NCBI GenBank assembly: GCA_036268405.1
Contig: DATAUF010000077.1
Coordinates: 17,682-81,681 of the forward strand
Direction of reading: 5' to 3'
DNA: 64,000 nt
From: Mycobacteriales bacterium
GTDB lineage: Bacteria > Actinomycetota > Actinomycetes > JAFAQI01
Positions 24,505-64,000 of this stretch are shown piece after piece. The notes beneath the pieces were generated by a model. It made no database searches and was not told the DNA's origin. It saw only the letters and a program-made list of their open reading frames with translations. Position numbers and translations under genes: made by a program. Position 1 is the stretch's first letter. Each line of letters starts with the position of its first letter.

Positions 24505-26475
<1,971 letters not shown>

Positions 26476-26626
26476 GTCTGCTGCCTTTCCGCAGGTGTCG
26501 TGACGGGCCGTGCCCAGATTCTGATCAGACCACACTCGCCCTCTACCCCGCGAACCATCCAAAAAGTCGCAATCGGCTCCGCCGGCGCGACGGCACTCCG
26601 CGTCCTTTGCGGCATGCTTGTCGGAC

Positions 26627-32512: not shown

Positions 32513-32576
32513 CGCCGAGGCCAACCTTTTGGGTCTTTCAGAGGGGTCTGAAAGACCATTTACGTTGGCCTCGACG
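32513..32576. repeat. palindromic intergenic repeat, copy B (CGCCGAGGCCAACC...GTTGGCCTCGACG)
   Basis: It shares the GAGGCCAAC/GTTGGCCTC arms and the GGGGTCTGAAAGACC centre with copy A. It is preceded by an 18-bp tandem duplication, ctatgactaacgccgagg x2. Confidence 0.85.
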
Positions 32577-32578
32577 TA

Positions 32579-38745: not shown

Positions 38746-38752
38746 CGCACTC

Positions 38753-39655
38753 CTAGCTCGTCTGCGGTGTCGCCGTCTCGTCCGTGGACGCCTGCCAGGG
38801 TCTCGCAGTCGCGAACCATGCCACGAATCCTGCGAACAGTACGCCGACCAGAGTCCAGCCGAGCTCGGTCGTGCCGACACCGACGTACTTCAGCCCGGAG
38901 GCGAGAATCACGAACGTGATGGCGGGGCGGATGTAACGGTCCGGTGCGCGAGAGGACAGGAACGACCCGACAAGGACGGCCGGGACGCTGCCGATGATCA
39001 GCGAGGTCGTCACGCCGAAGGACACGTTGCCGAACGCGAGCGCGCCAAGCGCAGCCGCTCCGGTAAGCGGAAGTGCCTGGCTCAGGTCGGTTCCGACCAG
39101 CTGGTTGGCACCGATCATCGGGTAGAGGAACAGCAGAAGGACGATCATCAGCGAGCCCGAGCCGACCGACGTCATGCCGACGACGATCCCGCCGACCATC
39201 CCGATCGCGATCGTGCGCAGCGGGTGCACGTGGATGTCGGTGACCACGCCCTGGCGACGGTTGCCCGCTCGCTGGTCGAGGACGAACCGCAGCACCATCG
39301 CCGCGGCGCCCAGCAACAGGGCGCTGCCGAGCAACCGCTCGACGTTGGTCTGAGCGTCGGAGGAGTCCCCGAGCCGGTGCAGCAGGTAGGACCCCAGGAA
39401 CGCCATGGGCACCGAGCCCACTGACATCAGCCAGACCAGCCGCAGGTTGACCGTTCCCTTGCTGAGGTGGACCAGTGCGCCAAGCGGTCGCATCACGACG
39501 GCGGCGACGAGGTCGCTGGAGATCGCCTTGTCGGGCTGGACGTTGAACAGCAGGATCAGCATCGGCGTCATGAGCGCGCCCCCACCCGCTCCGGTCGTGC
39601 CGACGAGGATGCCGATGATCGCGCTGCCCAGAACGATGTAGGGGTCGACATGCAT
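38753..39655 (-). CDS. TauE/SafE (DUF81) family sulfite/anion exporter
   Basis: A 300-aa membrane protein with 8 TM helices and two Gly-rich repeats. A GAGAGG RBS precedes the start. Confidence 0.8.
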   Translation of the reverse strand: MHVDPYIVLGSAIIGILVGTTGAGGGALMTPMLILLFNVQPDKAISSDLVAAVVMRPLGALVHLSKGTVNLRLVWLMSVGSVPMAFLGSYLLHRLGDSSDAQTNVERLLGSALLLGAAAMVLRFVLDQRAGNRRQGVVTDIHVHPLRTIAIGMVGGIVVGMTSVGSGSLMIVLLLFLYPMIGANQLVGTDLSQALPLTGAAALGALAFGNVSFGVTTSLIIGSVPAVLVGSFLSSRAPDRYIRPAITFVILASGLKYVGVGTTELGWTLVGVLFAGFVAWFATARPWQASTDETATPQTS

Positions 39656-48842: not shown

Positions 48843-49856
48843 ATGAGGACGATGACCGAGTACGACCGCAACGGGTCGCACGGCACCGAGCCATATGTGC
48901 ACGACCGTGCGGCCAGGCAACGGATGTTCTGGAAGCGCCGGCTTGCCGTAGGCGTGCCGTTTGCGCTCGCGCTGGCCCTGATCGTGACGCTGGTGGTCGC
49001 GGCGGTCGGACCTGGCGCGACGGCACCGTCTGCCGCCGGCGTCTCCAACTCGGCTGCCTCCAACGCGAGGCTCGCCTCCTTGTTGCTGCCCAACAGTGGC
49101 TCGCCGAGCCGCTCGTCGACGGTCGTACGCCAGTCCGCGAGCTCACATGCCGTCGCCGTCACATCGAGCGGCGGTGCGGTCGCGCATCACGGCTCAGCCG
49201 GCAGCGCCGAGCGCTCTCGCTCGGCCACCGAGTCCGACCTCGCGATGGTGCCGACACGTCAGGTTGTCGCGCATCTCGAGCACAGCACCGCGGGTTACCC
49301 GGGCCGCACCGCACTGATGAAGAACCGCACGGTGCCGGGCTCGTGGTACGGATATCCCTCGATCCTTCCGGTGATCGCCAAGACGCGGGACCGGCTCGAA
49401 GTCCGCCTCGCGCAGCGGCCGGACGAGGCAACGACCTGGATCAAGCGCAGCGCGGCCGTGCTGACCGTGACCCACTGGGCGATTCTCGTGAACATCTCTC
49501 AGCACTGGCTCTACGTCTTCCACGACGGGATCCAGCAGGCATCGTTCCCGGTCGGCAACGGCGCCACCAACACGCCGACCCCGACCGGCACCTACTTCGT
49601 TGCGTTCCACGCGCCTCCGACCAACTCCGGCTACGGCTCGGTGATGATGGAGACGTCGGCGCACTCGCGGGCGATCGAGCACTTCGAGGGCGGCAACGAC
49701 GCCATCATTGCGATCCACGGACCGGTCGGATCCGACGCGCAGATCGGCAACCATGGAGCCGCCATCTCCAACGGCTGCATCCGGATGCACGACTGGGACC
49801 TGAACCAGGTCAAGCACGTGCCCAACGGTGCGCCGGTCATCCTCACTCCTTACTAA
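48843..49856 (+). CDS. L,D-transpeptidase (YkuD domain) with N-terminal membrane anchor
   Basis: The catalytic motif HGPVGSDAQIGNHGAAISNGCIRM is present. Confidence 0.75.
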   Translation: MRTMTEYDRNGSHGTEPYVHDRAARQRMFWKRRLAVGVPFALALALIVTLVVAAVGPGATAPSAAGVSNSAASNARLASLLLPNSGSPSRSSTVVRQSASSHAVAVTSSGGAVAHHGSAGSAERSRSATESDLAMVPTRQVVAHLEHSTAGYPGRTALMKNRTVPGSWYGYPSILPVIAKTRDRLEVRLAQRPDEATTWIKRSAAVLTVTHWAILVNISQHWLYVFHDGIQQASFPVGNGATNTPTPTGTYFVAFHAPPTNSGYGSVMMETSAHSRAIEHFEGGNDAIIAIHGPVGSDAQIGNHGAAISNGCIRMHDWDLNQVKHVPNGAPVILTPY

Positions 49857-51456
49857 CGCCAGGCGCCGGGGCGCGCTCGCGGTAGTCGGGGGAGCGGCAT
49901 TAGCGCTTGCGTTCGCTGCGCCGGGCGATGCGAATGCCTCCCACCGCGCGTCCGTCGCGCGGCGACCGGTCACGATCCCCGCCCTACAACGGTGGAGCCC
50001 GTCGCGCGGCGATTGGCGACTGGGGGCAGGCACCAGGATCGTCGTCCCTCACGAGACACCGGTGACTTTGCGAGCCAGTGTGCAAGAGGCTCAGAAGCTC
50101 GCGCACGATCTCGCGGCGTCCCTCGACGCCCCGATCCCCGTGGTCGTCGATGCGGTGGCCGAGCCCGGGGACATCGAGATGCGCCTTACGGGACCGAGCG
50201 CACGACTTGGGCGCGAGGGCTACCGGCTCGACGTAGGCGGGACGCTCACGATCTCCGCACCGACCGCCACCGGGCTGTTCTACGGCGGCCGGACTGTGCT
50301 TCAGCTGTTGCACCAGAGTCGATCGATCCCGAGCGGAGTGGCGCGCGACTGGCCGCGCTACCCCCAGCGCGGGCTGATGGTCGACGCATCGCGGACGGTC
50401 TACTCGACGTCGTGGGTGCTCCGCGAGATCCGGCGGCTGGCTGCCCTCAAGCTCAACGTCCTGCACCTGCACCTGACCGATGACCAGCGTTGGGCGATCA
50501 CGAGCCGGGCGTTCCCTGACATCGTCGGGTCGCATCCGTTCACCGTCGGCGACATCCACCGGATCCTGCGCCTCGCCCACCGCGATCACGTCACCGTGAT
50601 TCCTGAAATCGAGATGCCGGGCCACATGGCGGCATTCCTGAAGAAGCACCCGGGGCTCATCCTCAAGCCCACCGGACTCGTCCCTCCCTCCACGTCCGCG
50701 ACCTACACGACGGACAAGCTCGACATCACCGCGCCGGCAGCGCTCGCAGCGATGCGGAGGGTCCTCGAGGAGTACCTGCCACTGTTTCCCGGGAAGTACT
50801 GGGACATGGGGACTGATGAGTACCTCAGCCCGGCCGAGTATCCGATCTTCCCGCAGCTCGCGACGTACGCGATCGCGAAGTACGGCGCCGGCGCAACACC
50901 GGCGGACGCGATCCATGGCTTCATCAACTGGGTCGATGGCATCGTTCGCTCACACGGCAAGACGTTGCGGATCTGGAACGACCAGGTCGGCGGAACCGGC
51001 CGGGTGCCGGTCAACCGCGATGTCGTCATCGAGTGGTGGGACTCGTTCTCGCCGTTCGGCGACACCGTCACCGTCTCGCCGGAGACGCTGATCGCCCACG
51101 GCTACCGGGTGTTGAACGCAGGCTGGTACCCGAACTACTACACGTCTGCGATCGGACCGGTTTCCGGCAAGGCAAGCCTGCCCGGCGTCTACACCGGCTG
51201 GCAGGTCAACGAGTTCGACGGCAACGAGTTCGGAAAGCTCGTCAGCAGCATGCAGAAGGTGCCGGCGAGCAGTCCGGGCCTGCTCGGCTCGGCGCTGAGC
51301 ATCTGGGGTCCGCTTGACGAGACGGCTGCACAGACCGCAAGCGGGATCGAGCCGCACCTCGCGGTGCTTGCGCAGAAGACGTGGGGCAGCCCGCCGCCCG
51401 CGACGGCGTACTCGGGATTCACCCGCGATGCACGGCGGGTGGGCCTGCCCTCCTGA
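49828..51456 (+). CDS. secreted glycoside hydrolase family 20 beta-N-acetylhexosaminidase
   Basis: A signal peptide is followed by YPQRGLMVDASR, HLHLTDDQ and IPEIEMPGH. The GTG start overlaps the ldt end by 29 nt, so the start is tentative. Confidence 0.75.
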   Translation: MRRSSSLLTNARRRGALAVVGGAALALAFAAPGDANASHRASVARRPVTIPALQRWSPSRGDWRLGAGTRIVVPHETPVTLRASVQEAQKLAHDLAASLDAPIPVVVDAVAEPGDIEMRLTGPSARLGREGYRLDVGGTLTISAPTATGLFYGGRTVLQLLHQSRSIPSGVARDWPRYPQRGLMVDASRTVYSTSWVLREIRRLAALKLNVLHLHLTDDQRWAITSRAFPDIVGSHPFTVGDIHRILRLAHRDHVTVIPEIEMPGHMAAFLKKHPGLILKPTGLVPPSTSATYTTDKLDITAPAALAAMRRVLEEYLPLFPGKYWDMGTDEYLSPAEYPIFPQLATYAIAKYGAGATPADAIHGFINWVDGIVRSHGKTLRIWNDQVGGTGRVPVNRDVVIEWWDSFSPFGDTVTVSPETLIAHGYRVLNAGWYPNYYTSAIGPVSGKASLPGVYTGWQVNEFDGNEFGKLVSSMQKVPASSPGLLGSALSIWGPLDETAAQTASGIEPHLAVLAQKTWGSPPPATAYSGFTRDARRVGLPS

Positions 51457-51526
51457 TCCGAAAGCCGGGGGCCGGCGACGGGCGTGGCACCTTGCCCCGC
51501 GGCGGGGGGCTCCGGATGATCAGGTT

Positions 51527-52651
51527 GTGGACTACGACTACTTCGCGAATCCTGGGCGGGCGCCCGTGGCGAAGCCGGTCAATGCTCCGCAGCCGTCTCC
51601 GGACGGCCAACCGTCGACGCCGGGCTGGACGCCTCCGCCGGATGACATTGCCACGGTGCTGCCGCAGCAGACCGTGCCTGCCGTGGATATGGGCACGGTG
51701 CTGCCGCAGCAGACCGCACCTTCCGAGCCGCCACGGATCTCGGCCTACGAGCGAACGTTGCTCGCGGGTAGCGCGGCGACGTCGTACGAGCACATGCAGG
51801 ATGCCCCGAGCGCGTACCGTCGCGGCTCCAAGCTCGGTCTCTTCGGCAGCATTCGGGTCGGCTTCCAGCTGATCCCGGTGTGCTGGTCGGTGCTGATGCA
51901 GGAGCTTTCGTTGCTGATCGTCCCGCTGGTCGTGTTGCTGCTCGGCACGCTTTTGCTGCTCGGCTACTCGGCGGGGTTCGGCGGAGTCGATGGACTCGTC
52001 GGCGCCAACAAGGTTGATACCGCCGCGCGGATCTTTCCGATTCTCGTCGTCCTGATGATCCTTAGCGTGGTCGGTCAAGCAGTGATCGTCGCCGCGTCCA
52101 CGGCGATCCTTGACGGCGACCGCAGCTCGCCCGGCACGGCGTGGATGGCTGCACTCAACCAGCTTCCCAAGCTGGCAGGGTTCGGGGTCGTGTACGCCTG
52201 CGAGCGCACGCTCACCGGACTACTCCGCGGACGACGAAGGTGGTCGCCCACGACGATCGCGGCGAACGCCCTTGACCGAGCGTGGGACTTTGCGACGTTC
52301 CTCGCGATCCCGGTCCTGCTCTACGAGAATGTCGGCGTGTTCGAGGCGGTCAAGCGATCGGGCAGGCTCGTTGCGCAGCGCTGGGGCGTACAGCTCACCG
52401 CTCGGTCGGTGCTCGGGTTGGCACTGTTCGTCGCTGCTCTGCCGCTGCTGGTCATCGGCCTGCTCGTTGCAGTCGGGGTATCCGCCGTGCTGGGGATCGT
52501 CCTGATCCTCATTGTCCTGCTTGGCCAGATCGCGTTGGCGGGTGCCCTGACCGGAGTGCTCTCTGCGGCGCTCTACCACTTCGGTACCACCGGGCTGGTC
52601 GCACCGGGCTTCACCGAGGCCGACATGTGGGCGGCCTTCGACCAGAGCTAG
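51527..52651 (+). CDS. integral membrane protein with Pro/Gln-rich N-terminal region (unknown function)
   Basis: About 6 TM helices follow a PQPSPDGQPSTPGWTPPPDD segment. The start is uncertain. Confidence 0.5.
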   Translation: MDYDYFANPGRAPVAKPVNAPQPSPDGQPSTPGWTPPPDDIATVLPQQTVPAVDMGTVLPQQTAPSEPPRISAYERTLLAGSAATSYEHMQDAPSAYRRGSKLGLFGSIRVGFQLIPVCWSVLMQELSLLIVPLVVLLLGTLLLLGYSAGFGGVDGLVGANKVDTAARIFPILVVLMILSVVGQAVIVAASTAILDGDRSSPGTAWMAALNQLPKLAGFGVVYACERTLTGLLRGRRRWSPTTIAANALDRAWDFATFLAIPVLLYENVGVFEAVKRSGRLVAQRWGVQLTARSVLGLALFVAALPLLVIGLLVAVGVSAVLGIVLILIVLLGQIALAGALTGVLSAALYHFGTTGLVAPGFTEADMWAAFDQS

Positions 52652-52691
52652 CGGCAGGAAACCATCGCGCTTCACCGAATCCCAGGGTGTG

Positions 52692-55034
52692 ATGCGGTGG
52701 GTGGCGGGCGGCGCCGCTTCACTGCTGCTCGCCATGGCGGTACCGGCGCTCGGGGCGACGCCAGGCTCGTCCGGCCTCGCGCAGGCGGCAGTCACCTCGG
52801 GAGCGTCCCTCGCCGGCCTGGTGGACACCCGCTCGGGCTCGCTCGGACCGGGCTTCGTGACGGTTGCCGCGGGAGTGCCGTTCGGGATGGTCACACCCGG
52901 CCCCGCCACGACCACCCCGCTCGGCGACGACCCACTCGACTACGTGGGCTACTCCTATCAGGACCCGGAGATCCGGGGCTTCGCGCTTACCCACTTCTCC
53001 GGGGCCGGCATCCACATCGGCGGCGAGCTTCCGGTGATGCCGTCGACCGGCGCAGTCACCAGCCAGCAGCCCAGCAGCTGGGCCAGTCCTTTCACGCACG
53101 TCACCGAGACCGCGCAGCCCGGTTATTACGCGACAACGTTGCTGCGAACCGGCGTGCGCGCGGAGCTCACCTCGACGCTGCGCACCGCTGTCGAGCGCTT
53201 CACCTTCCCGTCGACCTCCCGGGCGAACCTGATCTTCGACGTCACCCGCGACAACGACAGCAACCAGGACGGCGGGACCCAGACCGGCGCCTTCCGGGTC
53301 CTCGGAGATCGAATGGTGCGCGGCGAAGTTCTGGTGCCCGACTCGGGTGGCGTGTCGATCTGGTTCGCCGCGCGGTTCAACCGTCCGTTCGACAGCCACG
53401 GCACCTGGACGGCGAAGGGCATCTCGGCGGGTAACCGATTGGCATCGGGCCGTGGCGCCGGCGGATGGATCAGCTTCGACGCGACCAAGGTGCGTCAGGT
53501 GCAGGCGGACATCGCGCTGAGCTACACCTCCGCCATGGAGGCGGTCCGCAACCTCGGCGCCGACACCGCGGGATCGCCGTCCTTCGACACCGTGCGGGCT
53601 GCGGCGCAACGGGCGTGGAACGCGAGACTGGCAAGCCTCGCCGTAACTGGCGGCACGACACGCAGCCACCGGACGTTCGAGACGAATCTCTATCGCGCGC
53701 TCGAGATGCCGACCACGTTTGACGACGTTGACGGGCGTTACCGCGGATTCGACAACCGGGTGCATCGTGTGACGCCAGGCCATCATCACTACACGGATCT
53801 CTCCCTCTGGGACACCTACCGGACGCAGACGCCGCTGCTCACTCTTGTCGCGCCGAGCGTCGCGCACGACCTTGGAATCTCGCTGCTCGCCGACACCGCG
53901 CAGAACGCCGGAGTCATTCCCCGATGGGTTCGGGGCAACCGCGACTACGGGATCATGGGCGGCGACTCCGGCACGGCCACTCTGGCAACGCTGGTGACCA
54001 GCGGTGCGTTGCGCGGTGCCGATGCACGGCGGGCGTACGTCGACGTCGTCCGGCAGGGCACGGCGTTGCCATCGGTGGCCCCACGTTCGGGCCTCTACAG
54101 CTATTTGAAGCTTGGGTTCATCCCGCTGCAAGTCAGTGACCGAGGTGCCGCCGTGACCCTCGAGTACGCCATCGACGACGCGTCGGTTGCCGCCCTTGCC
54201 AAGCAGTTCCACGACGCCAGGCGACTGTCGGTCTTCCGTCGCCGCTCCGGCTATTGGCGCCATCTTTTCGACGCCAAGGACCGGTTCCTGCGGCCCCGCA
54301 TGGTCGACGGTTCTTGGGCCACGCCGACCAGCCTGGGCGTCACGAAGGTCTTCAACCCGATCTTCGCCGACGGTTGGCAGGAAGGCACCGGCTGGCAGTA
54401 CCTGTGGCTGGTGCCGCAGGATGTGCGGGGTCTGTCGGAGGCCATCGGTCACGGCACGATGTTGAAGCGGCTCGACCGCTTCTTCACGGCGGCATTGGAC
54501 CGACAGGCCGCACCCGTCGTACCCGAAGTACAAGCGGACTCTTCACTGTTCGGCATCGTCTACATCGGCAACCAGTACACGCCGGCAAATGAGACCGACC
54601 TCGAGGCCCCATGGCTCTATGACTGGCTCGGGGAGCCCTGGCGCACCGCTCAGATCGTGCACGCCGAGGCGGGCGTCTACAGCCCGGGGCCACTTGGCCT
54701 GCCCGGCAACGACGACGCCGGCACGATGTCGGCCGGCTACGTCCTCTCGGCCATCGGGATGTACCAGGCACAGCCTGGTTTCGACGCGTGGGAACTCACG
54801 GCACCGATGTTCACATCGGTGAAGATCGGTCACCGCTTCGAGATCGACGCCGCCGGGGCCGGAGCGCTTCACCCCGACATCGCGTCGGCGAGGCTGAACG
54901 GCCACGCGCTCAAGAAGGTCTGGCTGACCGACGAGCAACTACACGGGACGCTCAGCTACAGCATGTCGGCCAGCCGCAGCGCATGGGGAAGCAATCCAGC
55001 GGCGGCGCCACCCAGCCTCAACTCTGCGAGCTGA
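52692..55034 (+). CDS. secreted glycoside hydrolase family 92 (alpha-mannosidase-like)
   Basis: About 780 aa with a signal peptide and GH92-like motifs (HFSGAGI, LYRALEMP, YTDLSLWDTYRT, GNDDAGTMSA). Confidence 0.7.
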   Translation: MRWVAGGAASLLLAMAVPALGATPGSSGLAQAAVTSGASLAGLVDTRSGSLGPGFVTVAAGVPFGMVTPGPATTTPLGDDPLDYVGYSYQDPEIRGFALTHFSGAGIHIGGELPVMPSTGAVTSQQPSSWASPFTHVTETAQPGYYATTLLRTGVRAELTSTLRTAVERFTFPSTSRANLIFDVTRDNDSNQDGGTQTGAFRVLGDRMVRGEVLVPDSGGVSIWFAARFNRPFDSHGTWTAKGISAGNRLASGRGAGGWISFDATKVRQVQADIALSYTSAMEAVRNLGADTAGSPSFDTVRAAAQRAWNARLASLAVTGGTTRSHRTFETNLYRALEMPTTFDDVDGRYRGFDNRVHRVTPGHHHYTDLSLWDTYRTQTPLLTLVAPSVAHDLGISLLADTAQNAGVIPRWVRGNRDYGIMGGDSGTATLATLVTSGALRGADARRAYVDVVRQGTALPSVAPRSGLYSYLKLGFIPLQVSDRGAAVTLEYAIDDASVAALAKQFHDARRLSVFRRRSGYWRHLFDAKDRFLRPRMVDGSWATPTSLGVTKVFNPIFADGWQEGTGWQYLWLVPQDVRGLSEAIGHGTMLKRLDRFFTAALDRQAAPVVPEVQADSSLFGIVYIGNQYTPANETDLEAPWLYDWLGEPWRTAQIVHAEAGVYSPGPLGLPGNDDAGTMSAGYVLSAIGMYQAQPGFDAWELTAPMFTSVKIGHRFEIDAAGAGALHPDIASARLNGHALKKVWLTDEQLHGTLSYSMSASRSAWGSNPAAAPPSLNSAS

Positions 55035-55974: not shown

Positions 55975-56766
55975 ATGCAGAGGGAAGAGCTTGCCGGAAA
56001 GGTGGCCATCGTCACCGGGGGCGCCGGCGGAATCGGCCGCGCCACCGCTCACGCGTTGGTGGCCGAAGGCGCGAGCGTGGTGATCGCAGATATCGATGCG
56101 GAGGCGGGCGAGGCCCTATGCGCAGAGCTGGGTGACGCCGCAGCGTTTCTACGGGCCGACGTCAGCGACCTCGAGGAGGTGCAGGCACTTGTCGACTTCG
56201 CGGTCACCCGCTTCGGCGGGCTGGACATCATGTTCAACAACGCGGGGGTCGGCAGCGCGTTGACTCGACTGCTCGACGACGACCTCTCGGACTTTCACCG
56301 GATCATGAACATCAACCTCTTCGGCGTCATAGCCGGATCGCAGCGCGCGGCTCGCCACATGCGAGACAACGGCGGTGGCGTGATCATCAATAACGCATCG
56401 ATCGCGGCCATCAACGCGGGGGCGGGCATGATCGCGTACCGGTCGTCGAAGGCGGCCATCGCACACGCGACAAAGTGCATGGCGGTCGATCTCGCGCCTT
56501 ACGGGATCCGCGTCAACTGCCTCACGCCGGCCCACATCCGGACCGGGATCACGACCTATGACATGGGTCCGGTGCTGAAGTACATGCAGCCGCTCGAACG
56601 TGAGGCGCAGCCCGAGGACGTGGCGAACGCCGTCGTGTTTCTTGCCAGCGATCGCGCCGCGCAGGTGACCGGCGTGATCCTCCCGATCGACGGCGGCACG
56701 GCCGCCGGCAACTCCATGGCGCAGACCAGGCTGATCATGTCGACCGCCAAGCCGTCGGTGCCGTAG
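55975..56766 (+). CDS. SDR-family oxidoreductase
   Basis: The sequence contains VAIVTGGAGGIGRA ... NNAG ... YRSSKAA ... PIDGG. Confidence 0.85.
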   Translation: MQREELAGKVAIVTGGAGGIGRATAHALVAEGASVVIADIDAEAGEALCAELGDAAAFLRADVSDLEEVQALVDFAVTRFGGLDIMFNNAGVGSALTRLLDDDLSDFHRIMNINLFGVIAGSQRAARHMRDNGGGVIINNASIAAINAGAGMIAYRSSKAAIAHATKCMAVDLAPYGIRVNCLTPAHIRTGITTYDMGPVLKYMQPLEREAQPEDVANAVVFLASDRAAQVTGVILPIDGGTAAGNSMAQTRLIMSTAKPSVP

Positions 56767-56769
56767 CGG

Positions 56770-58038
56770 TCAGCTGATCTCGAGATAGAGCTTCTTCAGG
56801 CCGCGCAGAAAGAAGGTCGGCAGGTAGGCGTACCGGCGGTCATCAGCCGGTCCGTGATGAGCGTCTGAGATCGAGATGTTGTTGGTGCGCTCGATGAATC
56901 GCTCGAGGGTGACCCGGCCCTCTGTGCGGGCGAGTGGTGCGCCCGCACAGGTGTGGATGCCGTGACCGAAGGCGATGTGCTGGCGGGCGTTGGCTCGACG
57001 GATGTCGAAATCGTGAGGGTTCTCGAAGGTCTTGGGATCGCGATTGCAAGCGCCGGGCAGCAACATGACCGTGCCACCGGCGGGGATCTCGACGCCACCC
57101 AAAGTCGTCTTGACGCGAGCCATCCGGAACTGGCTGCGCAATGGGCTTTCGAGGCGCAGCGTCTCCTCGACGAAGTTCGGCACAAGCTCCCGCTCGTCCC
57201 GGACGACCTTCTGCAGGTCCTGGCGCTCACCGAGCATGCGCAGCGCGAAACCGAGCAGCCGGACGGTCGTCTCCTGCCCGCCGACGAAGAGGTTGGCGGC
57301 GATGAGGGCCGCGTCCTTCACTTCCGGTGTCGAGCCGTCGGGGAACACCGCAGTCGCAAGGCCCGTGAGGACATCGTCGCGAGGCTCGCGCCGGCGGTCC
57401 TCGACGTAGGCGGCGAACTGCTCGTAGAGAAACTCCAGCGGCTTGTGTGCCAGCGCGTCGGAGACGGTTGAGAGCTGGTCGCGGAACTTGTCGTGGTCGG
57501 ACTCGGGCACCCCTTCGAGATCCGCGATCACCGTGAGGGTGAACGGCTCCGCGTACTGCGCGATCAGCTCGCAGTTGCCGTCGTCGAGGAACACGTCAAG
57601 CAGTGAGTCGGCGTAGCGCCACATGAACTCTTCGTTGGCGCGTAGCCGCCCGGGGGTGATGAGGCGCATCAACAGGAAGCGCTGATCGGTGTGGTACGGC
57701 GGGTCGAACGAAGGGATCTGGTCGCTGAACGGCAGCTCGTGGCGATGCTTCACGATCAGCTCGGTGATGTCGTCGCCGTCGACCGATTCGGAGAACTTCA
57801 CGAACGGCCCGCTGACCGCGTTGCAGGACGAGTAGGTGCCGGAGGCGGCCTCGTGCTCCGGAAAGGTGGCCGGGTCGCGGTAGATCTCCTTCGCCTCCGC
57901 ATGGCCGGTGACCATGAAGGCGCCGTAGTTCGGCTCCTGCCACACCGGGTTCTGCTCGCGCACCCAGTCGAAGTAGGGATAGGGGTCGGCCTGGATCTCC
58001 GCGTCCTTGAAGAAGTTGACCTGGGAGAACTCCGTCAC
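56770..58038 (-). CDS. cytochrome P450
   Basis: The heme-binding loop FGHGIHTCAGAPLAR is present, with ETLRL (K-helix ExxR) and VGGQETT. The GTG start at 58038 overlaps the upstream gene's stop (GTGA), with a GGGAAGG RBS. Confidence 0.85.
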   Translation of the reverse strand: MTEFSQVNFFKDAEIQADPYPYFDWVREQNPVWQEPNYGAFMVTGHAEAKEIYRDPATFPEHEAASGTYSSCNAVSGPFVKFSESVDGDDITELIVKHRHELPFSDQIPSFDPPYHTDQRFLLMRLITPGRLRANEEFMWRYADSLLDVFLDDGNCELIAQYAEPFTLTVIADLEGVPESDHDKFRDQLSTVSDALAHKPLEFLYEQFAAYVEDRRREPRDDVLTGLATAVFPDGSTPEVKDAALIAANLFVGGQETTVRLLGFALRMLGERQDLQKVVRDERELVPNFVEETLRLESPLRSQFRMARVKTTLGGVEIPAGGTVMLLPGACNRDPKTFENPHDFDIRRANARQHIAFGHGIHTCAGAPLARTEGRVTLERFIERTNNISISDAHHGPADDRRYAYLPTFFLRGLKKLYLEIS

Positions 58039-59789
58039 GAGGCTGCCTTCCCAGTCGCGTGCCGTGCCGCGACGAATCCGAAGATCATGCTGTTGGCGAT
58101 GCTGCCGCCGGGGCCGAGGTAGTGGCGGCCCATGACCGTGGCCGTCGCGTTGCCGGTGGCATAGAGGCCCGCGATCGGCTGGTCTGCCTTGCCGATCACT
58201 CGGGCGTGCTCGTCGGTGATCATTCCGCCACAGGTCCCGACATCGCCGGGGACGACGTCGCACGCGTAGAAGGGCCCTTCCTCGATCGGCTCGATGCACG
58301 GGTTCTTCACCTTGCGATGCGGATCGCCGAGCGCCTTGTTGTACGCCGACTCACCGCGGCCGTACTCCGGGTCCTTGCCGTCGATCGCGTGCCGGTTGAA
58401 CTGCTCGACGGTCTCGACCAGCCCATCAGGATCGATCCCGCACAGCTCAGCGAGCTCGCGCAGCGTCGCCGCCTTCTTGATCTTGCCGCTTTCCAGGACG
58501 GCCTTCGGAAATCGTCCGGGGGAGGAGCGCACGTGGGCGTACCGCTTGCGGTAGCGGTCGTCGAAGATGAGCCAACAGGGCACTGCCTTGCTGGTCCTGT
58601 CACGCTCGTACATCGCCTTGCCGACCTCCATGTAGGAGTTCGACTCGTTCACGAACCGCTTGCCCGCCGCATCGACGTAGATCGTGCGAGGCCGTTGCCG
58701 CGCCTGATCGAGGGTGTTCTGCCCGAACTTGCCGGATCGCGGCGACGGCAGCCACCACGCTTCGTTCATGAAGTCGGTCTTGGCGCCGAGCGCGATCGCG
58801 GTACGAATGGCTTCACCCGTGTCACCCATGTTCGCCATCGACCACTTCGCCTGGTTCGGCTGGTCGCCACTGAACTCCGCGCGCATCTCTCGGTTCTGTG
58901 CGAACCCACCGGTCGACAGCAGCACGCCCTTACGCGCCTGCACGTTGACGACGGCGCCGTCACGGGTCACTCGAACCCCGACGACGCGACCCTGCTCGAC
59001 GATCAGGTCTTCGAGCGGTGCATCGGTCCAGACCATCACGCCCTTGGCCAGTGCGATCTTCAGCACCTGGCCGATGAACGATGCGCCGTTGGTCAGCAGA
59101 TCCTGCCGCCGGACCCTTGCCCAGGTGGTTCGCATCGCGACCCGCGCCGAGGTCACGAATGCCTTGATGCTGCGGTTGTAGTGCGAGAGATAGCGCGCTT
59201 CGTTAGTCATGACAGCGAGGCCGAGGTGCTTGGCCATGCCGAGCTGCACCTTGCCGGACCACTCGCCGAGCTGATGGCCGTCCCAGGGCACCGGCTCGAC
59301 ACCGCGGCCGATGTCGCTACCGCCCTTCGCGTCGGAGTAGTAGTCGCTGTAGCCGGGGCAGTAGACGAACTTGACGCCCTCTGCCTCGAGGAACTCGATC
59401 ATCTCCGGCCCCGCCGTGCAGAACGCGTGCCGACGTTCGTGGGTCGAGGCCGGACCCACCTCGCCGACGACGGCGTCGAAGTAGGCCATTCCGTCCTCAT
59501 AGGAGTCGGCCACCCCGGCGCGCTTCATGACCGCGTTGTTGGGGACCCACGCCATGCCGCCGGACATCGCCGTCGATCCGCCGATCAAAGACTGCTTTTC
59601 GACCACGAGCGCGCTGGCGCCCGCATCCGCGGCAGCGAGCGCGGCGACCATGCCACCGCCGCCGGAACCGACGGCGACGAAGTCGAAGGTGTGGTCCCAT
59701 GCCACGTCCACCGCCTGACACACCACCCTTCGAAGGTGCCGGCTCTTGCCGGCGCTGCTCATCGGATCCAACCAGATTTCATTGACCAT
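58035..59789 (-). CDS. FAD-dependent oxidoreductase (3-ketosteroid-delta1-dehydrogenase / fumarate-reductase flavoprotein-like)
   Basis: FDFVAVGSGGGGMVAALAAADAGASALVVEK (FAD dinucleotide fold) and C-terminal GLYATGN are present. The start is ATG 59789 or ATG 59762. Confidence 0.75.
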   Translation of the reverse strand: MVNEIWLDPMSSAGKSRHLRRVVCQAVDVAWDHTFDFVAVGSGGGGMVAALAAADAGASALVVEKQSLIGGSTAMSGGMAWVPNNAVMKRAGVADSYEDGMAYFDAVVGEVGPASTHERRHAFCTAGPEMIEFLEAEGVKFVYCPGYSDYYSDAKGGSDIGRGVEPVPWDGHQLGEWSGKVQLGMAKHLGLAVMTNEARYLSHYNRSIKAFVTSARVAMRTTWARVRRQDLLTNGASFIGQVLKIALAKGVMVWTDAPLEDLIVEQGRVVGVRVTRDGAVVNVQARKGVLLSTGGFAQNREMRAEFSGDQPNQAKWSMANMGDTGEAIRTAIALGAKTDFMNEAWWLPSPRSGKFGQNTLDQARQRPRTIYVDAAGKRFVNESNSYMEVGKAMYERDRTSKAVPCWLIFDDRYRKRYAHVRSSPGRFPKAVLESGKIKKAATLRELAELCGIDPDGLVETVEQFNRHAIDGKDPEYGRGESAYNKALGDPHRKVKNPCIEPIEEGPFYACDVVPGDVGTCGGMITDEHARVIGKADQPIAGLYATGNATATVMGRHYLGPGGSIANSMIFGFVAARHATGKAAS

Positions 59790-59835
59790 TGCTACGACAC
59801 CGAAGTAATCTCCGGCCACACGCCGAGGAGGCCTG

Positions 59836-61032
59836 ATGTCCGCTGGCTCGACCACAGTGACGTACCCACGCGACGGGTTCGGAGCGCCGAAGGACCGCGA
59901 GCTGCCGCCCCTCGTCGACGTGGGACTGCCGGCCGGGACGCAGGTGTTCTCGGCCGACAACCACATCTCGCTTTCCGAGGACATCTTCTTCGAGAACTTC
60001 CCTGAAGACATGAGGGACCAGGCTCCGCGCGTGACCAACGAGGACGGCGGCTGGGTCCTCGCGGTCGGCGGCAAGTCGGTGCTCGTCAAGGAGTTCATCG
60101 ACGTCCTCACGCAGTACGACCCCGTGCCGGGCTCGCACACCGGCGACATCGCGGCGCGTCTCGCCGCGCTCGAGTCCGAAGGGGTCCATGCGGAGCTCGC
60201 CTTCCCCAACTCGATCCTGGCGTTGTTTGGCTGGCCCGACAAAGCCGTCCGCGAGCGCTGCTTCCGGATCTACAACGAGCACATCGCCGGTGTGCAGGAA
60301 CGCTCGGGCAACCGCATCTACGGAGTCGGCCTCATCAACTGGTGGGATGCCGACGGGGCGCGCCGTACCCTCACCGAGCTCAAGGAGCTCGGGCTGAAGA
60401 CGTTCCTGATGCCGTTGGTCCCCGGCAAGGACGATGATAAGAAGCCGATCGACTACTGCGCGTCGTCGATGGACGGCGTGTGGGACGCGATTGAGGAGTC
60501 GGGCATTCCGGTCTCACACCACATCGGCGAGAACCCGCCGCAGACCCCCATCGAGTTCAACGCGCTTCAGGTCGGCATGTTCCAAGCCGTCGCGCCGTTC
60601 CGCGACACGTTCGGAAAGTACGTCCTGGGCGGCATTCTCGACCGGCATCCGGGCTTGCGGATCGGCTACTTCGAAGGTGGCATCAACTGGGTGCCGTCGG
60701 CGATCCAGGATGCGCAACACATCGCCGCGTCGTTCCGGCACATGCAGGACACCGAGATCAAGCTCGATCCGCAGGAGTACTGGGACAAGCACATGTATGC
60801 GTCGTTCATGGTGGACCCGCTGGGCCTGTCGATGGTCGACCGGATCGGCGTGGAGAAGGTCATGTGGTCAACCGACTTCCCGCACAACGAGAGCACCTAC
60901 GGCTACAGCAACTCATCACTGGCGAGCGTTGTGGAGATGGTGGGTCCGGAGGCGGGCAAGGCGATCGCCAGCGACAACGCGAAACGGTTCCTCGGACTCG
61001 AGACCGGATTGCGAGCGGAGCTCGACGTATGA
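59836..61032 (+). CDS. amidohydrolase-2 family (PF04909) metal-dependent hydrolase/decarboxylase-like
   Basis: The sequence contains FSADNHISLSEDIF, HHIGENPP and STDFPHNEST. The ATG has a GAGGAGG RBS. Confidence 0.8.
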   Translation: MSAGSTTVTYPRDGFGAPKDRELPPLVDVGLPAGTQVFSADNHISLSEDIFFENFPEDMRDQAPRVTNEDGGWVLAVGGKSVLVKEFIDVLTQYDPVPGSHTGDIAARLAALESEGVHAELAFPNSILALFGWPDKAVRERCFRIYNEHIAGVQERSGNRIYGVGLINWWDADGARRTLTELKELGLKTFLMPLVPGKDDDKKPIDYCASSMDGVWDAIEESGIPVSHHIGENPPQTPIEFNALQVGMFQAVAPFRDTFGKYVLGGILDRHPGLRIGYFEGGINWVPSAIQDAQHIAASFRHMQDTEIKLDPQEYWDKHMYASFMVDPLGLSMVDRIGVEKVMWSTDFPHNESTYGYSNSSLASVVEMVGPEAGKAIASDNAKRFLGLETGLRAELDV

Positions 61033-62255
61033 CCGCTGGTCTCATGGAGGCGCGGCCGACGCGCTTCCCGGCTCGGCCGGACCTGGCGCGGATGCGCCTG
61101 GATCGCACGGACCGGGTGCGCGCCGTCATGCGCGAGCAGGGCATCGATGCGCTCGTGCTGTCGGGCAACACCAACGTCGTCTACGCGACCGGCGCGATCT
61201 GGCCGTTCGCAGACGAGAGCCGCACGACGTTCGAGCGGCCGGTTGCGGTGGTGCTCGCCGAGGACGCCGTGCCCCATCTGTTCACGCCGATCCGCAGCGA
61301 CGACCGGCTGCGTGCGGGACTGCCGGAGGACCACGTTCACGGTCCGGCGCACCTCGACTTCGACGAGGGCGTTGTGCTGTTTCTGCCGAAGCTCAGCGAG
61401 CTGCTCCCGGCCGAAGCGGTCGTGGCGTACGACGAATGGACGCACTCGTTGCGCCGTACCGAGCTGTTTCTCGGGCCCAGCGGAGCGCCGACGGACGCGG
61501 GTCGCATCATCAGCCGGGCAAAGCTGCACAAGACGCCGGACGAGCTGTCCTGCCTTCGCGAGGGTCTGCGGATCATGGAGCTCGGCATCGCCGACGTGCA
61601 GGCCAAGCTCGCTCCTGGAGTGCGACAGGTCGACCTGACTGCGACGTTCCTGCGGACGATCTTCGACGCCGGCGCGGACGCCAACATCCTCGACCCGATC
61701 TGGCAGGTGATGCCCAACAGCATCGCTGAAGGACCGTGGACCACGACCGGGGACTTGGCGTTGCCGCTCCTGTCGACCGAACGGGAGCTCGCTGCAGGTG
61801 ACGTGCTGTGGGTCGACCTGGGCCTCAGCTATGAGGGGATGCACACCGACTTCGGCCGGACGTGGGTTGTGGGAAACGAGCCCAATGCGGTCCAGCGGGC
61901 GCAGTTCGACCGTTGGCGAGCGATCCTCGATGCCACGCTCGCGGTCACTCGAGCGGGTGCCAGGAACTCCGAACTCCTCGATGCGGCGACCGAGGCCAAC
62001 GACGGCAGCAAGCCATGGCTGCCGCACTTCTACCTCGGCCATGGGCTCGGCATCGACAGCGCAGAGATGCCGTTCGTCGGCAGCGACATCGGTGAGGCGT
62101 TCGATGCGTCCTACGTGCTCGAGGCCGGCATGGTGCTCGTCCTTGAGCCGGTGGTCTGGGAGGACGGCCAATGCGGCTATCGCTCCGAGGAGGTCGTCCT
62201 CATCACGGAGGACGGCTGGGAGCCGTTGACCGACTACCCGTACGACCCGTTCTGA
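61029..62255 (+). CDS. M24-family metallopeptidase/creatinase-fold hydrolase (Xaa-Pro peptidase-like)
   Basis: Creatinase N-terminal and pita-bread C-terminal domains are present (HTDFGRTW ... GHGLGIDSAEMPF ... VLEP). Its ATGA start overlaps the upstream stop. Confidence 0.8.
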   Translation: MTAGLMEARPTRFPARPDLARMRLDRTDRVRAVMREQGIDALVLSGNTNVVYATGAIWPFADESRTTFERPVAVVLAEDAVPHLFTPIRSDDRLRAGLPEDHVHGPAHLDFDEGVVLFLPKLSELLPAEAVVAYDEWTHSLRRTELFLGPSGAPTDAGRIISRAKLHKTPDELSCLREGLRIMELGIADVQAKLAPGVRQVDLTATFLRTIFDAGADANILDPIWQVMPNSIAEGPWTTTGDLALPLLSTERELAAGDVLWVDLGLSYEGMHTDFGRTWVVGNEPNAVQRAQFDRWRAILDATLAVTRAGARNSELLDAATEANDGSKPWLPHFYLGHGLGIDSAEMPFVGSDIGEAFDASYVLEAGMVLVLEPVVWEDGQCGYRSEEVVLITEDGWEPLTDYPYDPF

Positions 62256-62262
62256 GGACGCT

Positions 62263-63408
62263 GTGACAGACACCGAAGTGCGTCCTGACGCCGCCACGCT
62301 GCGAGCTGCGCGCCGTGAGCGCGTGCTCACCGAGATGAAAGACCGCGGGATCGACATCTTCATCTCGGGCCGTGAGCCCAACGCCCGCTACATCGCGGGT
62401 GTGCCCCGGCTCTGGATCAACGGGTCGCGCCCGTTCGGTCCGGGCTGCGTTCTCTCGTCAAGCGGTGCGATCGACATCGTCAGCACCTGGGACGATGGCG
62501 TGCCCGACGACATTCCCCACGAGAACCTGCACGGAATCACGTTCAACGGTGCCACCACGCTCGCCTGGCTGACCAAGGTCGAGGGAGCAGCGACGGCCAG
62601 GACGGTGGCCACCGATGGGCTGATGCCCTCGACGATCGCACTGGTTCGCAAGGCATTCCCAGCCGCGGACCTGGTCGACGGCGAGCAGATGATGCGCCGC
62701 GTCCGTGCCGTGAAGATGCCGGACGAGGTCGACGCGATCCGGCGTGCGGTGGAGATCGCCGAGGGCGCGCTCGTTGTTGCGGAGGAGGCGCTCCGGGTCG
62801 GCGTCACCGAGCGTCAGCTCACCGGGATCTTCATGGAACACATGGCCGAAGCCGGGGTGACGACGCCGAGCACCCAGGACGTCGTGTGGATCACCTCGCG
62901 GAGCGACGCCTGGTCGCGGACCAGCCGGGACACTGCCGTCACGGCCGACGACTTGGTGGCGCTCGACGGCGGCGTGATCGCCCGCGGCTATGTCGGTGAG
63001 GTGGGCTGGACCGCCGCGGTCGACGGCGCCGAACGCGTCGCCGGCTCGCTGGCAGGCAGCTGGGATGCGTTGTGGGACCGGCTGCTCGATGCCTGCCGCC
63101 CCGGCGGCCCCGCGTCCGGTCTTCTTGCGGCATATGAGGCAGTAGGTGTTGCCGTGCCGCCGATGCCGGTGGCCCGGGGCCTGGGCAACGGCAACGACGT
63201 CCCGTTGGTGATGGCGAGCCTGCCCAGGACCGCTGCCGAGCTTCGACTCGAGGCCGGGATGGTGCTCGCGGTCACGGCGTACGTCTGGCGCGAAGGCGTC
63301 GGCGGTCTCTACGGCAAGGCGCCCGTCCTGCTCACCGACGCCGGACCTGAGCTCCTGTCGACCAGACCGCTGCGCGGAGGCGCCCATGTCGACAGCGGAA
63401 GGAGCTGA
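62263..63408 (+). CDS. second M24/creatinase-fold family protein (divergent)
   Basis: Same two-domain layout with weaker metal-ligand conservation. GTG start with a GAGGACG RBS. Confidence 0.65.
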   Translation: MTDTEVRPDAATLRAARRERVLTEMKDRGIDIFISGREPNARYIAGVPRLWINGSRPFGPGCVLSSSGAIDIVSTWDDGVPDDIPHENLHGITFNGATTLAWLTKVEGAATARTVATDGLMPSTIALVRKAFPAADLVDGEQMMRRVRAVKMPDEVDAIRRAVEIAEGALVVAEEALRVGVTERQLTGIFMEHMAEAGVTTPSTQDVVWITSRSDAWSRTSRDTAVTADDLVALDGGVIARGYVGEVGWTAAVDGAERVAGSLAGSWDALWDRLLDACRPGGPASGLLAAYEAVGVAVPPMPVARGLGNGNDVPLVMASLPRTAAELRLEAGMVLAVTAYVWREGVGGLYGKAPVLLTDAGPELLSTRPLRGGAHVDSGRS

Positions 63409-63411
63409 CCG

Positions 63412-64000
63412 GTGACCGACGTCCCGTCGCCCGAGGAGATCATCCTCTACTCCAAGGATCCGCAGACCCGAATCGCAACGATCACGTTCAACCGCCCAGA
63501 CCACATCAACGCGCCGACAATCGGCGCGCGCAAGCGATACGGCGACCTGATCTTCAAGGCCAGCCTCGACGACGACGTGAAGGTGCTGGTCGTGCGCGGT
63601 GAGGGGGAGCACCTCGGAACCGGCGCGGACCTCGACGAGCTGATGGCCAAGCGCAAGGGCGGCGTCGCCATGCAGGAGGAGTTCGGGATCGAGGACGACG
63701 AGGACGTCACGATGCCCGGGCGCCACAACTACCGAAACGGCGCGTCCCTCGTGCACTGGTACGCCGACCCGCGCTCGGGCAACCGGTCACTGGCGGACTT
63801 CAAGAAGATCAGCATCCTCGAGGTCAAGGGCTATTGCTACGGCTGGCACTTCTACCAAGCTGCCGACGCTGACCTGGTGATCTCCTCAGACGACGGGCTG
63901 TTCGGCCATCCGGCATTTCGGTATGTCGGCTACGCGCCGCGAATGTGGCAGTGGGCGACGATCATGGGGCTGCGCAAGTTCCAGGAGATGGTCTTCACCG
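63412..64000 (+). CDS. enoyl-CoA hydratase/isomerase (crotonase) family protein, 3'-truncated at window edge
   Basis: GTG start with a GAAGGAG RBS. The sequence contains ITFNRPDHINA ... VLVVRGEG.HLGTGADL ... GYCYGWHF. No stop codon is reached before the window ends. Confidence 0.7.
   Translation, partial: MTDVPSPEEIILYSKDPQTRIATITFNRPDHINAPTIGARKRYGDLIFKASLDDDVKVLVVRGEGEHLGTGADLDELMAKRKGGVAMQEEFGIEDDEDVTMPGRHNYRNGASLVHWYADPRSGNRSLADFKKISILEVKGYCYGWHFYQAADADLVISSDDGLFGHPAFRYVGYAPRMWQWATIMGLRKFQEMVFT

Follow-up and report, generated by a model that had tools for sequence, protein, structure and literature searches.

The window analysed here, i.e. the whole 64,000-nt stretch of the Mycobacteriales contig DATAUF010000077.1 to which all positions refer, has a G + C content of about 68% and ends in a gene cluster whose portion in the window spans positions 55975-64000. 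Judging from the conservation of its ten parts in related genomes, the cluster is one functional unit. It codes for a short-chain dehydrogenase/reductase (SDR), a cytochrome P450, a KstD-like flavoprotein, a protein of the family PF04909, two proteins of the M24 fold (M24a and M24b) and a protein with the crotonase fold. The PF04909 protein, for which an initial annotation had hinted at a decarboxylase or hydrolase of the 'amidohydrolase-2' type, is predicted to be neither, but an amidohydrolase-related dinuclear oxygenase (ARO). As a tentative reading, which we prefer without holding it firmly, we propose that the cluster is a MarR-repressed catabolic module of two divergent operons, and that its substrate is a carboxylic acid, bulky and alicyclic and most likely terpenoid- or steroid-like, which is broken down as coenzyme A (CoA) thioester.

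A genome scan with M24a yielded relatives in 182 of 185,579 species genomes, and the best 80 of these 182 loci were surveyed by tblastn, with inspection of the called genes in two loci. The best 80 loci are all from metagenome-assembled genomes (MAGs), which belong to the Mycobacteriales, Frankiales/Frankiaceae, Acidimicrobiaceae, Microthrixaceae and other Acidimicrobiia. Danish (MFD) soil is a source of the related MAGs. Across these two bacterial classes M24a is 63-87% identical. In the roughly 80 loci, the recurrent set consists of the SDR, the P450, often a small 3Fe/4Fe ferredoxin and the KstD-like flavoprotein; divergent from the flavoprotein side follow the ARO, M24a, M24b, the crotonase, a two-domain CoA-transferase and a MarR-type regulator. 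An SDR orthologue with 68-85% identity was found at the cluster in most loci, with varying position and strand. The cluster often has a further P450 gene and a lone Rieske alpha subunit gene next to it, and genes farther out differ between loci. In three loci (L069, L075 and L079), one strand carries all nine genes colinearly, ordered as ARO, M24a, M24b, crotonase, CoA-transferase, flavoprotein, P450, SDR and MarR. From the closest loci (L004-L011), the rest of the crotonase gene, the CoA-transferase gene and the MarR gene are inferred to lie just past the end of the window.

Tight gene spacing is common in high-GC actinobacteria. It is the synteny, i.e. the same gene order in about 80 independent loci, and not tight spacing alone, that takes the cluster beyond chance. 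A chance juxtaposition of unrelated neighbours from separate pathways, for which nothing speaks beyond the lack of a named pathway, is refuted by this synteny and has virtually no probability, given that order and content are kept in about 80 loci of two classes with variable flanks, and given the overlapping start and stop codons, the shared conserved operator and the fully colinear versions.

The survey, which included a check for lack of co-conservation, thus bears out the initial annotation in that the genes form one co-conserved unit. Its statement that the cluster fits no named pathway also holds, as none of the core enzymes reaches an NCBIfam equivalog cut-off. No description of the gene combination and no functional study of the cluster were found in the searched literature. 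A megablast comparison of the 7.2-kb region with plasmids gave no match. The exact ARO protein was found on one 2.7-kb soil metagenome contig only, and the look-up of the exact M24b protein returned no record, probably through a different called start.

The predicted oxygenase and its partner enzymes

AROs are defined by two motifs, D-x-H in the N-terminal part and D-x-P-H-x-D/E in the C-terminal part, the second of which is reported to be missing from every characterised hydrolase or decarboxylase of PF04909 (PMC13154177). Both motifs are present in the cluster protein. The first reads SADNH, with D41 and H43 invariant in 69 orthologues, and aligns with SADSH of PtmU3 and SIDDH of DitZ. The second reads TDFPHNE, with D347, P349, H350 and E352 invariant in the same 69 orthologues, and aligns with SDYPHLE of PtmU3. 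Residues E120, H228/H229 and E280 are likewise invariant. H229 (in HIG) aligns with the HIG of PtmU3 and E280 (in YFEGG) with its AEAG; the ARO ligand list includes a mid-barrel His and a bridging Glu, which are His211 and Glu265 in AibH2 (PMC7782822).

Comparison with the PDB yielded PtmU3 (3.4e-33) and DitZ (9e-24) as the best matches, followed by others at about 1e-5 to 1e-6 or weaker, among them the decarboxylases and hydrolases of PF04909. PtmU3 is a diiron beta-hydroxylase that takes CoA-ligated diterpenoids (PMC7782822), and DitZ is a diiron hydroxylase of dehydroabietic acid (PMC13154177). Because the protein has both motifs and its closest solved relatives are oxygenases, we do not assign it as a decarboxylase or hydrolase; the predicted set of dinuclear-oxygenase ligands is complete, which speaks against the earlier hint. 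The high-potential (diiron) subclass of AROs is characterised by a hydrophilic gamma-1 residue and by the absence of a Rieske ferredoxin from the neighbourhood (PMC13154177). In the cluster ARO, the x of D-x-H, which we equate with gamma-1 by our own reading, is Asn and as such hydrophilic like Ser in PtmU3 and Asp in DitZ. A small Rieske ferredoxin was not seen in the cluster among the loci surveyed. In our reading, the protein resembles the diiron subclass in its terminal Glu and in this hydrophilic x.

A second ARO-type PF04909 gene is located elsewhere in the window (37549-38745, minus strand). Its product shows the DitZ-like motifs VISVDDHVVEP and VDYPHGD, is 23% identical to the cluster ARO and is followed by a TauE/SafE exporter gene (38753-39655; region 37549-39655, minus strand). 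In loci L002 and L005, a PF04909 gene (about 24% identity to the cluster ARO), a TauE gene and a gene for a Baeyer-Villiger-type monooxygenase, arranged in the same way, were found about 3 kb from the cluster. Assuming orthology of the pairs in the window and in L002/L005, the second ARO/TauE pair may belong to an extended regulon.

The two M24 proteins are 27% identical to each other and adjoin in all surveyed loci. In M24a the ligand residues D263, D274, H338, E373 and E387 are invariant among 49 orthologues, which corresponds to an intact binuclear metal site. At the same positions, M24b has D/E235, E246, R305, T/S338 and Q/K352 (64 orthologues), so that four of five ligands are lost. M24b is nevertheless under selection, with 122 near-invariant residues. 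Conservation of the domains runs in opposite directions: in M24a the C-domain is more conserved than the N-domain (0.89 vs 0.76), in M24b the N-domain more than the C-domain (0.80 vs 0.73). In dimers of the creatinase/prolidase type, the active site of each subunit is closed off by the N-domain of its partner, and the M24B members known to us are homo-oligomers. We propose that M24a is the catalytic subunit and M24b a non-catalytic partner. With the ligands kept in M24a and lost in M24b, and with domain conservation reversed, the two are most simply read as a heteromer that has one active site, in which the C-domain of M24a would be capped by the N-domain of M24b. Since the ligand positions are not kept, M24b should not be filed as a metallopeptidase on the basis of its sequence. 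In one ENA contig (P0042, 701 aa), the open reading frame runs from M24a into the N-domain of M24b and then into frameshifted sequence; this apparent natural M24a-M24b fusion was discarded as a probable long-read assembly error, as a frameshift follows.

By sequence, M24a is about equally distant from prolidase, creatinase, DddP and DoeA. Its scores were below all named NCBIfam cut-offs (DoeA 27-35 bits vs 575-613, DddP 52 vs 600, PepQ 54 vs 630, PRK09795 60 vs 393). An AlphaFold2 model of M24a had a predicted local distance difference test score of 70.6, with low confidence in the active-site loops. When compared to the PDB with Foldseek, the model matched prolidase, DddP, creatinase and DoeA with a probability of 1.00 and template-modelling (TM) scores of 0.65-0.73, of which DddP gave the highest query-normalised value (0.71-0.73). 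The four are not told apart by the Foldseek comparison, their scores being about equal. The earlier hint at DoeA or creatinase as models for the M24 proteins therefore finds no backing in M24a, which is equidistant from four families and far under the cut-offs of DoeA and DddP.

The crotonase fragment in the window is 91% identical to a full-length orthologue in L002, and its motifs GYCYGWHFY and LFGHPAFRY are invariant among orthologues. Compared to the motif of rat enoyl-CoA hydratase, which we take to hold the catalytic residues Glu144 and Glu164, it has Tyr and Ala at the two Glu positions. Provisionally, the protein thus appears to be without both catalytic Glu residues and is unlikely to be a plain hydratase; we propose an acyl-CoA lyase or hydrolase instead.

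In orthologous loci, the crotonase gene is followed by the genes of the two-domain CoA-transferase and then MarR. The CoA-transferase, seen in orthologous loci only, has 771-817 aa and tandem CoA_transf_3 domains, the halves of which are 31% identical. The catalytic Asp526 is invariant in the C-domain, with E166 at the equivalent position of the N-domain. The best solved match of the C-domain is benzylsuccinate CoA-transferase, and DddD and PtmU4 are the only characterised members of the type III CoA-transferases with two domains. The predicted CoA-transferase and MarR beyond the window place the chemistry on CoA thioesters.

For the P450, the best solved relative was found to be CYP150A6 of Mycobacterium marinum (6dcd; E = 4.5e-138, 464 bits over 419 residues), and the translation carries the motifs GGQETT, ExxR and FGHGIHTCAG. 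The score implies an identity well above 40%, the value used in naming P450 families. The only CYP150 activity found in the literature is the 4-hydroxylation of beta-ionone by CYP150A5 (PMC6237146). PDB matches of the flavoprotein comprise AcmB (7p18, a 3-oxosteroid/cholest-4-en-3-one delta-1-dehydrogenase; 2e-107) and KstD (4c3x; 2e-82). In NCBIfam it scores 764 bits for PRK12844 'KstD' (cut-off 789) and 537 bits for PRK07843 (cut-off 788), and it also matches the cyclohexanone-carboxylate desaturases ChcC1/ChcC2. The spacing in its motif RHYLGPGG is, by eye, like that which we take to hold for Tyr487/Gly491 of KstD. The SDR exceeds the cut-off of PRK07231 (252 vs 215 bits) and gives weaker matches to ChcB1/ChcB2.

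Gene layout, putative operator and mycobacterial variant

The Pfam scan agrees with all domain calls for the genes at 55975-64000 (Table 1). The SDR and P450 genes are convergent with a gap of 3 nt. On the minus strand, the stop codon of the flavoprotein gene and the GTG start of the P450 gene share a GTGA overlap at 58035-58038 (CTCGTGACGG); on the plus strand, the stop of the ARO gene and the start of M24a share an ATGA overlap at 61029-61032 (GTATGACC). M24a and M24b are separated by 7 nt (M24b start GTG 62263), M24b and the crotonase gene by 3 nt (start GTG 63412). With these junction sequences read and the Pfam results at hand, the genes, domains and start/stop overlaps called in the initial annotation were confirmed. 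A strong Shine-Dalgarno sequence, GAGGAGG, is located ahead of the ARO start codon ATG 59836. For the flavoprotein, the start candidates are GTG 59708, GTG 59723 and ATG 59763. Orthologues are called at 557-558 aa, and the nearest one (L004) has a short N-terminus, MTTWD. The ATG at 59763, if used, would be 25 nt from the operator.

Table 1 Features of the cluster in the window
Feature	Position	Strand	Remarks
SDR	55975-56766	+	263 aa; Pfam adh_short/adh_short_C2, 1e-52 to 1e-58
P450, CYP150 type	56770-58038	-	422 aa; Pfam p450; match to CYP150A6 (6dcd)
KstD/AcmB-like flavin adenine dinucleotide (FAD) flavoprotein	58035-59723	-	about 557-576 aa, start uncertain; FAD_binding_2, 1e-79
Putative promoter (TTGACC/TAATCT) and 22-bp palindrome	59782-59787/59806-59811; palindrome 59788-59809	+	palindrome recognised by cross-locus alignment
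Predicted ARO (Amidohydro_2, PF04909)	59836-61032	+	398 aa
M24a (Creatinase_N + Peptidase_M24)	61029-62255	+	408 aa
M24b (Creatinase_N + Peptidase_M24)	62263-63408	+	381 aa
Crotonase-fold protein (ECH_1)	63412->64000	+	first 196 of about 321 aa; cut by the end of the window

The divergent intergenic region harbours a 22-bp imperfect inverted repeat of the form ATTGCTACG-N4-CGAAGTAAT (full sequence ATTGCTACGACACCGAAGTAAT). TTGACC is located directly 5' of this palindrome, which overlaps TAATCT. The palindrome is present as a single copy in the 64-kb window and once per locus in 78 related loci, including those of Acidimicrobiia, in all of which it is found about 30-60 nt upstream of the ARO gene. 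In L077 and L082 it is perfect (ATTACTACG-N4-CGTAGTAAT). It was recognised by cross-locus alignment of the divergent intergenic regions alone; an inverted-repeat finder applied to the intergenic region was negative. A generic sigma-70 scan of the same region called no promoter, and the assignment of a promoter to 59782-59811 is tentative for this reason. A MarR orthologue is encoded 3' of the CoA-transferase gene in about 70 of the roughly 80 loci. We propose the palindrome as putative MarR operator of the divergent operons, since it looks like a site for a dimeric MarR that overlaps the promoter.

A second copy of the operator was observed in the rearranged locus L077 (15698-19731, Acidimicrobiales chromosome OZ244202.1), where it is located 5' of another operon. 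This operon codes for an acyl-CoA ligase, which is FadD3/CasG/long-chain-like, for a VOC protein of small size and for a Rieske alpha subunit accompanied by a SnoaL-like small subunit. The crotonase and CoA-transferase genes are absent from L077, and the ligase resembles FadD3, CasG and cyclohexanecarboxylate ligases. The locus points to a modular swap of the CoA-activating step under the same regulator. That a CoA ligase can apparently replace the CoA-transferase supports activation of a carboxylic acid in the pathway. A racemase function for the N-domain of the CoA-transferase, considered in view of the replacement by ligase and VOC protein, was dropped, as NCBIfam gave no support.

A variant of the cluster was found on an 864-kb replicon of Mycobacterium branderi. 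ARO, M24a, M24b, crotonase and two-domain CoA-transferase are encoded in the same order and are about 53-60% identical to the proteins of the window. M. heckeshornense and M. riyadhense show the same arrangement. The core of this variant follows a ferredoxin and another P450, with flanking SDRs, and the regulator is usually of the TetR type; the KstD-like gene and the 22-bp operator were not found in it. The P450 is CYP105Q4 (8swl, E = 7e-231). In M. marinum, the genes Mmar_4756-4765 have been listed as oxidoreductase, acyl-CoA transferase, EchA4_1, aminopeptidase, dipeptidase, unknown protein, CYP105Q4, Fdx9, regulator and SDR, and M. smegmatis, M. gilvum, M. vanbaalenii and M. ulcerans are reported to share this neighbourhood (PMC6237146, supplement). 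The module is thus one that was seen earlier as an unexplained gene neighbourhood and never interpreted.

MmpL/MmpS genes are located beside the variant of M. branderi. Within 100 kb on pJCM12687 (L084 and L089, about 546-641 kb of the 864-kb linear 'plasmid'), at least six P450 genes were counted, together with many SDRs, an epoxide hydrolase, a TauD-type dioxygenase and cyclases; the region looks like a large oxidative catabolic or tailoring island. A CYP150-like paralogue on this replicon was not accepted as a cluster member, as its context is unrelated. In the Actinomycetota MAGs with colinear genes (L069, L075 and L079), a second P450 gene is located directly upstream of the ARO gene, as in the mycobacterial variant. 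More distant AROs (37% identity) are encoded on sphingomonad plasmids. On Sphingomonas pJE1, the ARO occurs with a P450, an SDR, a thiolase, 3-hydroxyacyl-CoA dehydrogenases and an acyl-CoA ligase, and the M24 pair was not found beside the AROs of these plasmids.

Several other genes of the window are unrelated to the cluster. Those 5' of the SDR gene (GH20, DUF6159, GH92 and SRPBCC) are not kept beside the cluster in other loci; the GH20 and GH92 glycosidase genes flank the DUF6159 gene at 49828-55034. Farther upstream are genes for an acetyl-CoA-synthetase-like protein (24505-26739, minus strand), a WS/DGAT wax-ester synthase (26525-27994), a zf-HC2 anti-sigma-like protein (28489-29286) and a DnaE-type DNA polymerase III alpha subunit of 1132 aa (32552-35950).

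Proposed pathway and alternative explanations

In the proposed scheme, MarR would leave the palindromic operator upon binding of the substrate or an early intermediate. The CYP150-type P450 would hydroxylate a ring carbon, the SDR would oxidise the resulting alcohol to the ketone, and the KstD-like flavoprotein would desaturate next to the ketone to yield an enone, following the logic of ChcA/B/C or of 3-ketosteroids. The CoA-transferase (the ligase in L077) would turn the carboxylate into the acyl-CoA. The ARO would then perform an O2-dependent hydroxylation of an unactivated C-H bond, probably at a tertiary or beta carbon that blocks beta-oxidation, like PtmU3 on diterpenoid-CoA. The atypical crotonase and the M24a/M24b heteromer would cleave or open the hydroxylated product in a retro-aldol, retro-Claisen or hydrolytic reaction. 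The reaction of the M24 pair is the weakest and least certain step of the scheme, because known terpenoid and acyl-CoA pathways use no such enzyme. A terpenoid-like alicyclic acid is proposed as the substrate because the relatives of the P450, the flavoprotein, the ARO and the ligase act on terpenoid, steroid or alicyclic substrates, and because MmpL flanks one variant.

Several observations weigh against this scheme. Several components have relatives with small zwitterions as substrates as well (DddD, DddP, CaiD, GbcA-like Rieske proteins, SfbO and AibH2). Biosynthesis, rather than catabolism, is the best-known setting of PtmU3 and of CYP105 enzymes. The KstD-like protein is just under the NCBIfam cut-off and is missing entirely from the mycobacterial variants, and no ferredoxin or reductase gene was found in the window. 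We know of no precedent for the M24 pair in terpenoid, steroid or acyl-CoA catabolism, and the scheme does not predict the pair. In addition, none of the compounds in a broad screen shifted the spin state of CYP105Q4 (PMC6237146).

A more far-reaching reading, possible but doubtful, is that the ARO, the M24 heteromer and the glutamate-less crotonase form a new way to open acyl-CoA or hydroxy-acid intermediates with quaternary or otherwise blocked carbons. The M24 enzyme would then perform a non-peptidase step on a terpenoid-like intermediate, be it cleavage of a C-C, C-O or thioester bond or a lyase reaction. If this is true, soil Acidimicrobiia, Mycobacteriales, M. marinum and M. smegmatis would consume abundant alicyclic acids of plant or microbial origin.

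Instead of degrading an external compound, the cluster could tailor or remodel an endogenous terpenoid, lipid or cofactor, much as PtmU3 and its partner enzymes process the A-ring of platensimycin, in whose biosynthesis PtmU4 also serves. In favour of this, P450s of the CYP105 family typically belong to secondary metabolism, the M. branderi variant is flanked by MmpL/MmpS transporters, and many mycobacteria retain the variant, among them M. ulcerans, whose genome is reduced. However, no family of terpene synthases, polyketide synthases or nonribosomal peptide synthetases is recurrent in the flanking 10 kb of the 80 loci; the accessory genes that do recur code for P450s, transporters, aldehyde dehydrogenase and Rieske oxygenases. 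Catabolic clusters usually have such a divergent operon under a repressor, with genes for a crotonase and for a CoA-transferase or ligase, and the core is fixed while the flanks are variable. We therefore consider tailoring unlikely.

The initial annotation had suggested a hydrolytic route for a cyclic or amidated compound (a cyclic amidine or amide, e.g. ectoine-, creatine- or lactam-like), with the PF04909 protein as hydrolase or decarboxylase and the M24 proteins as C-N hydrolases. Such a route would be in line with the Creatinase_N + M24 architecture of both M24 proteins, with creatinase and DoeA among the structural neighbours of M24a and with the lack of metal ligands in M24b, as in creatinase. 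It is nevertheless improbable. The PF04909 protein has the full dinuclear-oxygenase ligands and only oxygenases as strong solved relatives, the DoeA scores of M24a are a small fraction of the cut-offs, and M24a keeps a metal site that creatinase does not have. The known routes for ectoine or creatine have no part for the P450, the KstD-like protein, the crotonase and the CoA-transferase. Nothing in the analysis speaks positively for a substrate of the amidine or amidated kind.

Catabolism of a small zwitterionic onium compound or sulfonate (like dimethylsulfoniopropionate (DMSP), carnitine or betaine) would involve a DddD-like CoA-transferase/lyase, a DddP-like M24 lyase, a CaiD-like crotonase and a GbcA-like Rieske protein. 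DddP indeed tops the query-normalised TM scores of the M24a model, the often adjacent lone Rieske alpha subunit matches GbcA best, some AROs (SfbO and AibH2) take small polar substrates, and a second ARO is encoded beside the TauE exporter in the window and near the cluster in L002. On the other hand, scores are far under the family cut-offs (DddP 52 vs 600 bits, GbcA 118 vs 670, CaiB 118 vs 413), and the ARO is much nearer to PtmU3/DitZ (1e-33) than to the SfbO type (1e-6). Again, CYP150, the KstD/AcmB relatives and the FadD3/CasG-like ligase point to hydrophobic substrates, which makes this explanation very improbable.

Comparison with known systems

All proteins of the cluster are members of known superfamilies, and actinobacteria commonly have catabolic clusters of this sort. 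What is new is the fixed set in which an ARO is joined by an active and a degenerate M24 protein, a two-domain CoA-transferase and a crotonase apparently without the catalytic Glu residues, its protein identity of about 70% with a shared putative operator across two actinobacterial classes, and the tie to two mycobacterial P450s that are orphans and have been crystallised. The ARO superfamily of oxygenases, recognised only lately, comprises about 17,000 sequences, and no more than a handful of functions are known in it. The cluster provides one ARO subfamily with fixed partners and a likely ligand-responsive regulator with a defined putative operator, which should make its substrate experimentally findable. 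To our knowledge, there is no precedent for M24 proteins that obligately pair as intact and degenerate forms next to acyl-CoA enzymes and an oxygenase, and the pair could take pita-bread enzymology past C-N hydrolysis and the lyase reaction of DddP. For CYP105Q4 and CYP150A6, orphan P450s of M. marinum that were crystallised without a known substrate, the context suggests CoA thioesters or hydroxylated alicyclic acids. The module is among few multi-gene traits with about 70% protein identity between uncultured soil Acidimicrobiia and Mycobacteriales; such sharing hints at a common, abundant soil substrate or recent gene transfer.

Compared to PtmU3 and DitZ, the predicted ARO shares the PF04909 TIM barrel, both motifs and all seven ligand positions, and its terminal Glu is the same as in PtmU3. 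A further likeness is that a CoA-activating enzyme is encoded near the ARO. Identity to the two enzymes is about 25-35%, estimated from the alignments, so the substrate is not transferable. In contrast to the cluster ARO, which is translationally coupled to the M24 pair, PtmU3 and DitZ are not known to have such partners, and the setting of the cluster looks catabolic whereas that of PtmU3 is biosynthetic.

M24B enzymes share the Creatinase_N + M24 architecture with both proteins. The D, D, H, E, E site of M24a is as in prolidase and DddP, while M24b is without a metal site, like creatinase. The cluster differs from known M24B enzymes in that an intact protein and a degenerate paralogue are always paired and in its partners, which are acyl-CoA enzymes and an oxygenase; a context of peptides or amidines is lacking. 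The CoA-transferase resembles the DddD/PtmU4 class in its tandem CoA_transf_3 domains with the catalytic Asp only in the C-terminal one; it differs from that class in having neither an adjacent PtmA3-like ligase (thioacid cassette) nor a DMSP context.

The P450, SDR and KstD-like flavoprotein belong to the same three families as the ChcA-B-C and KstD/AcmB modules, with the sequence of hydroxylation, oxidation and desaturation in common. In contrast to ChcA-B-C, the ChcB and ChcC scores in NCBIfam are 186-324 bits at cut-offs of 350-1000, and in contrast to steroid modules, Ksh/Hsa steroid-core genes are absent here. This three-gene module is dispensable in the mycobacterial variants. Finally, the Mmar_4756-4765 variant has CYP105Q4 and usually TetR where the cluster has a CYP150-type P450 and MarR, and the two share the same order of the five-gene core, an upstream ferredoxin and P450, and flanking SDRs.

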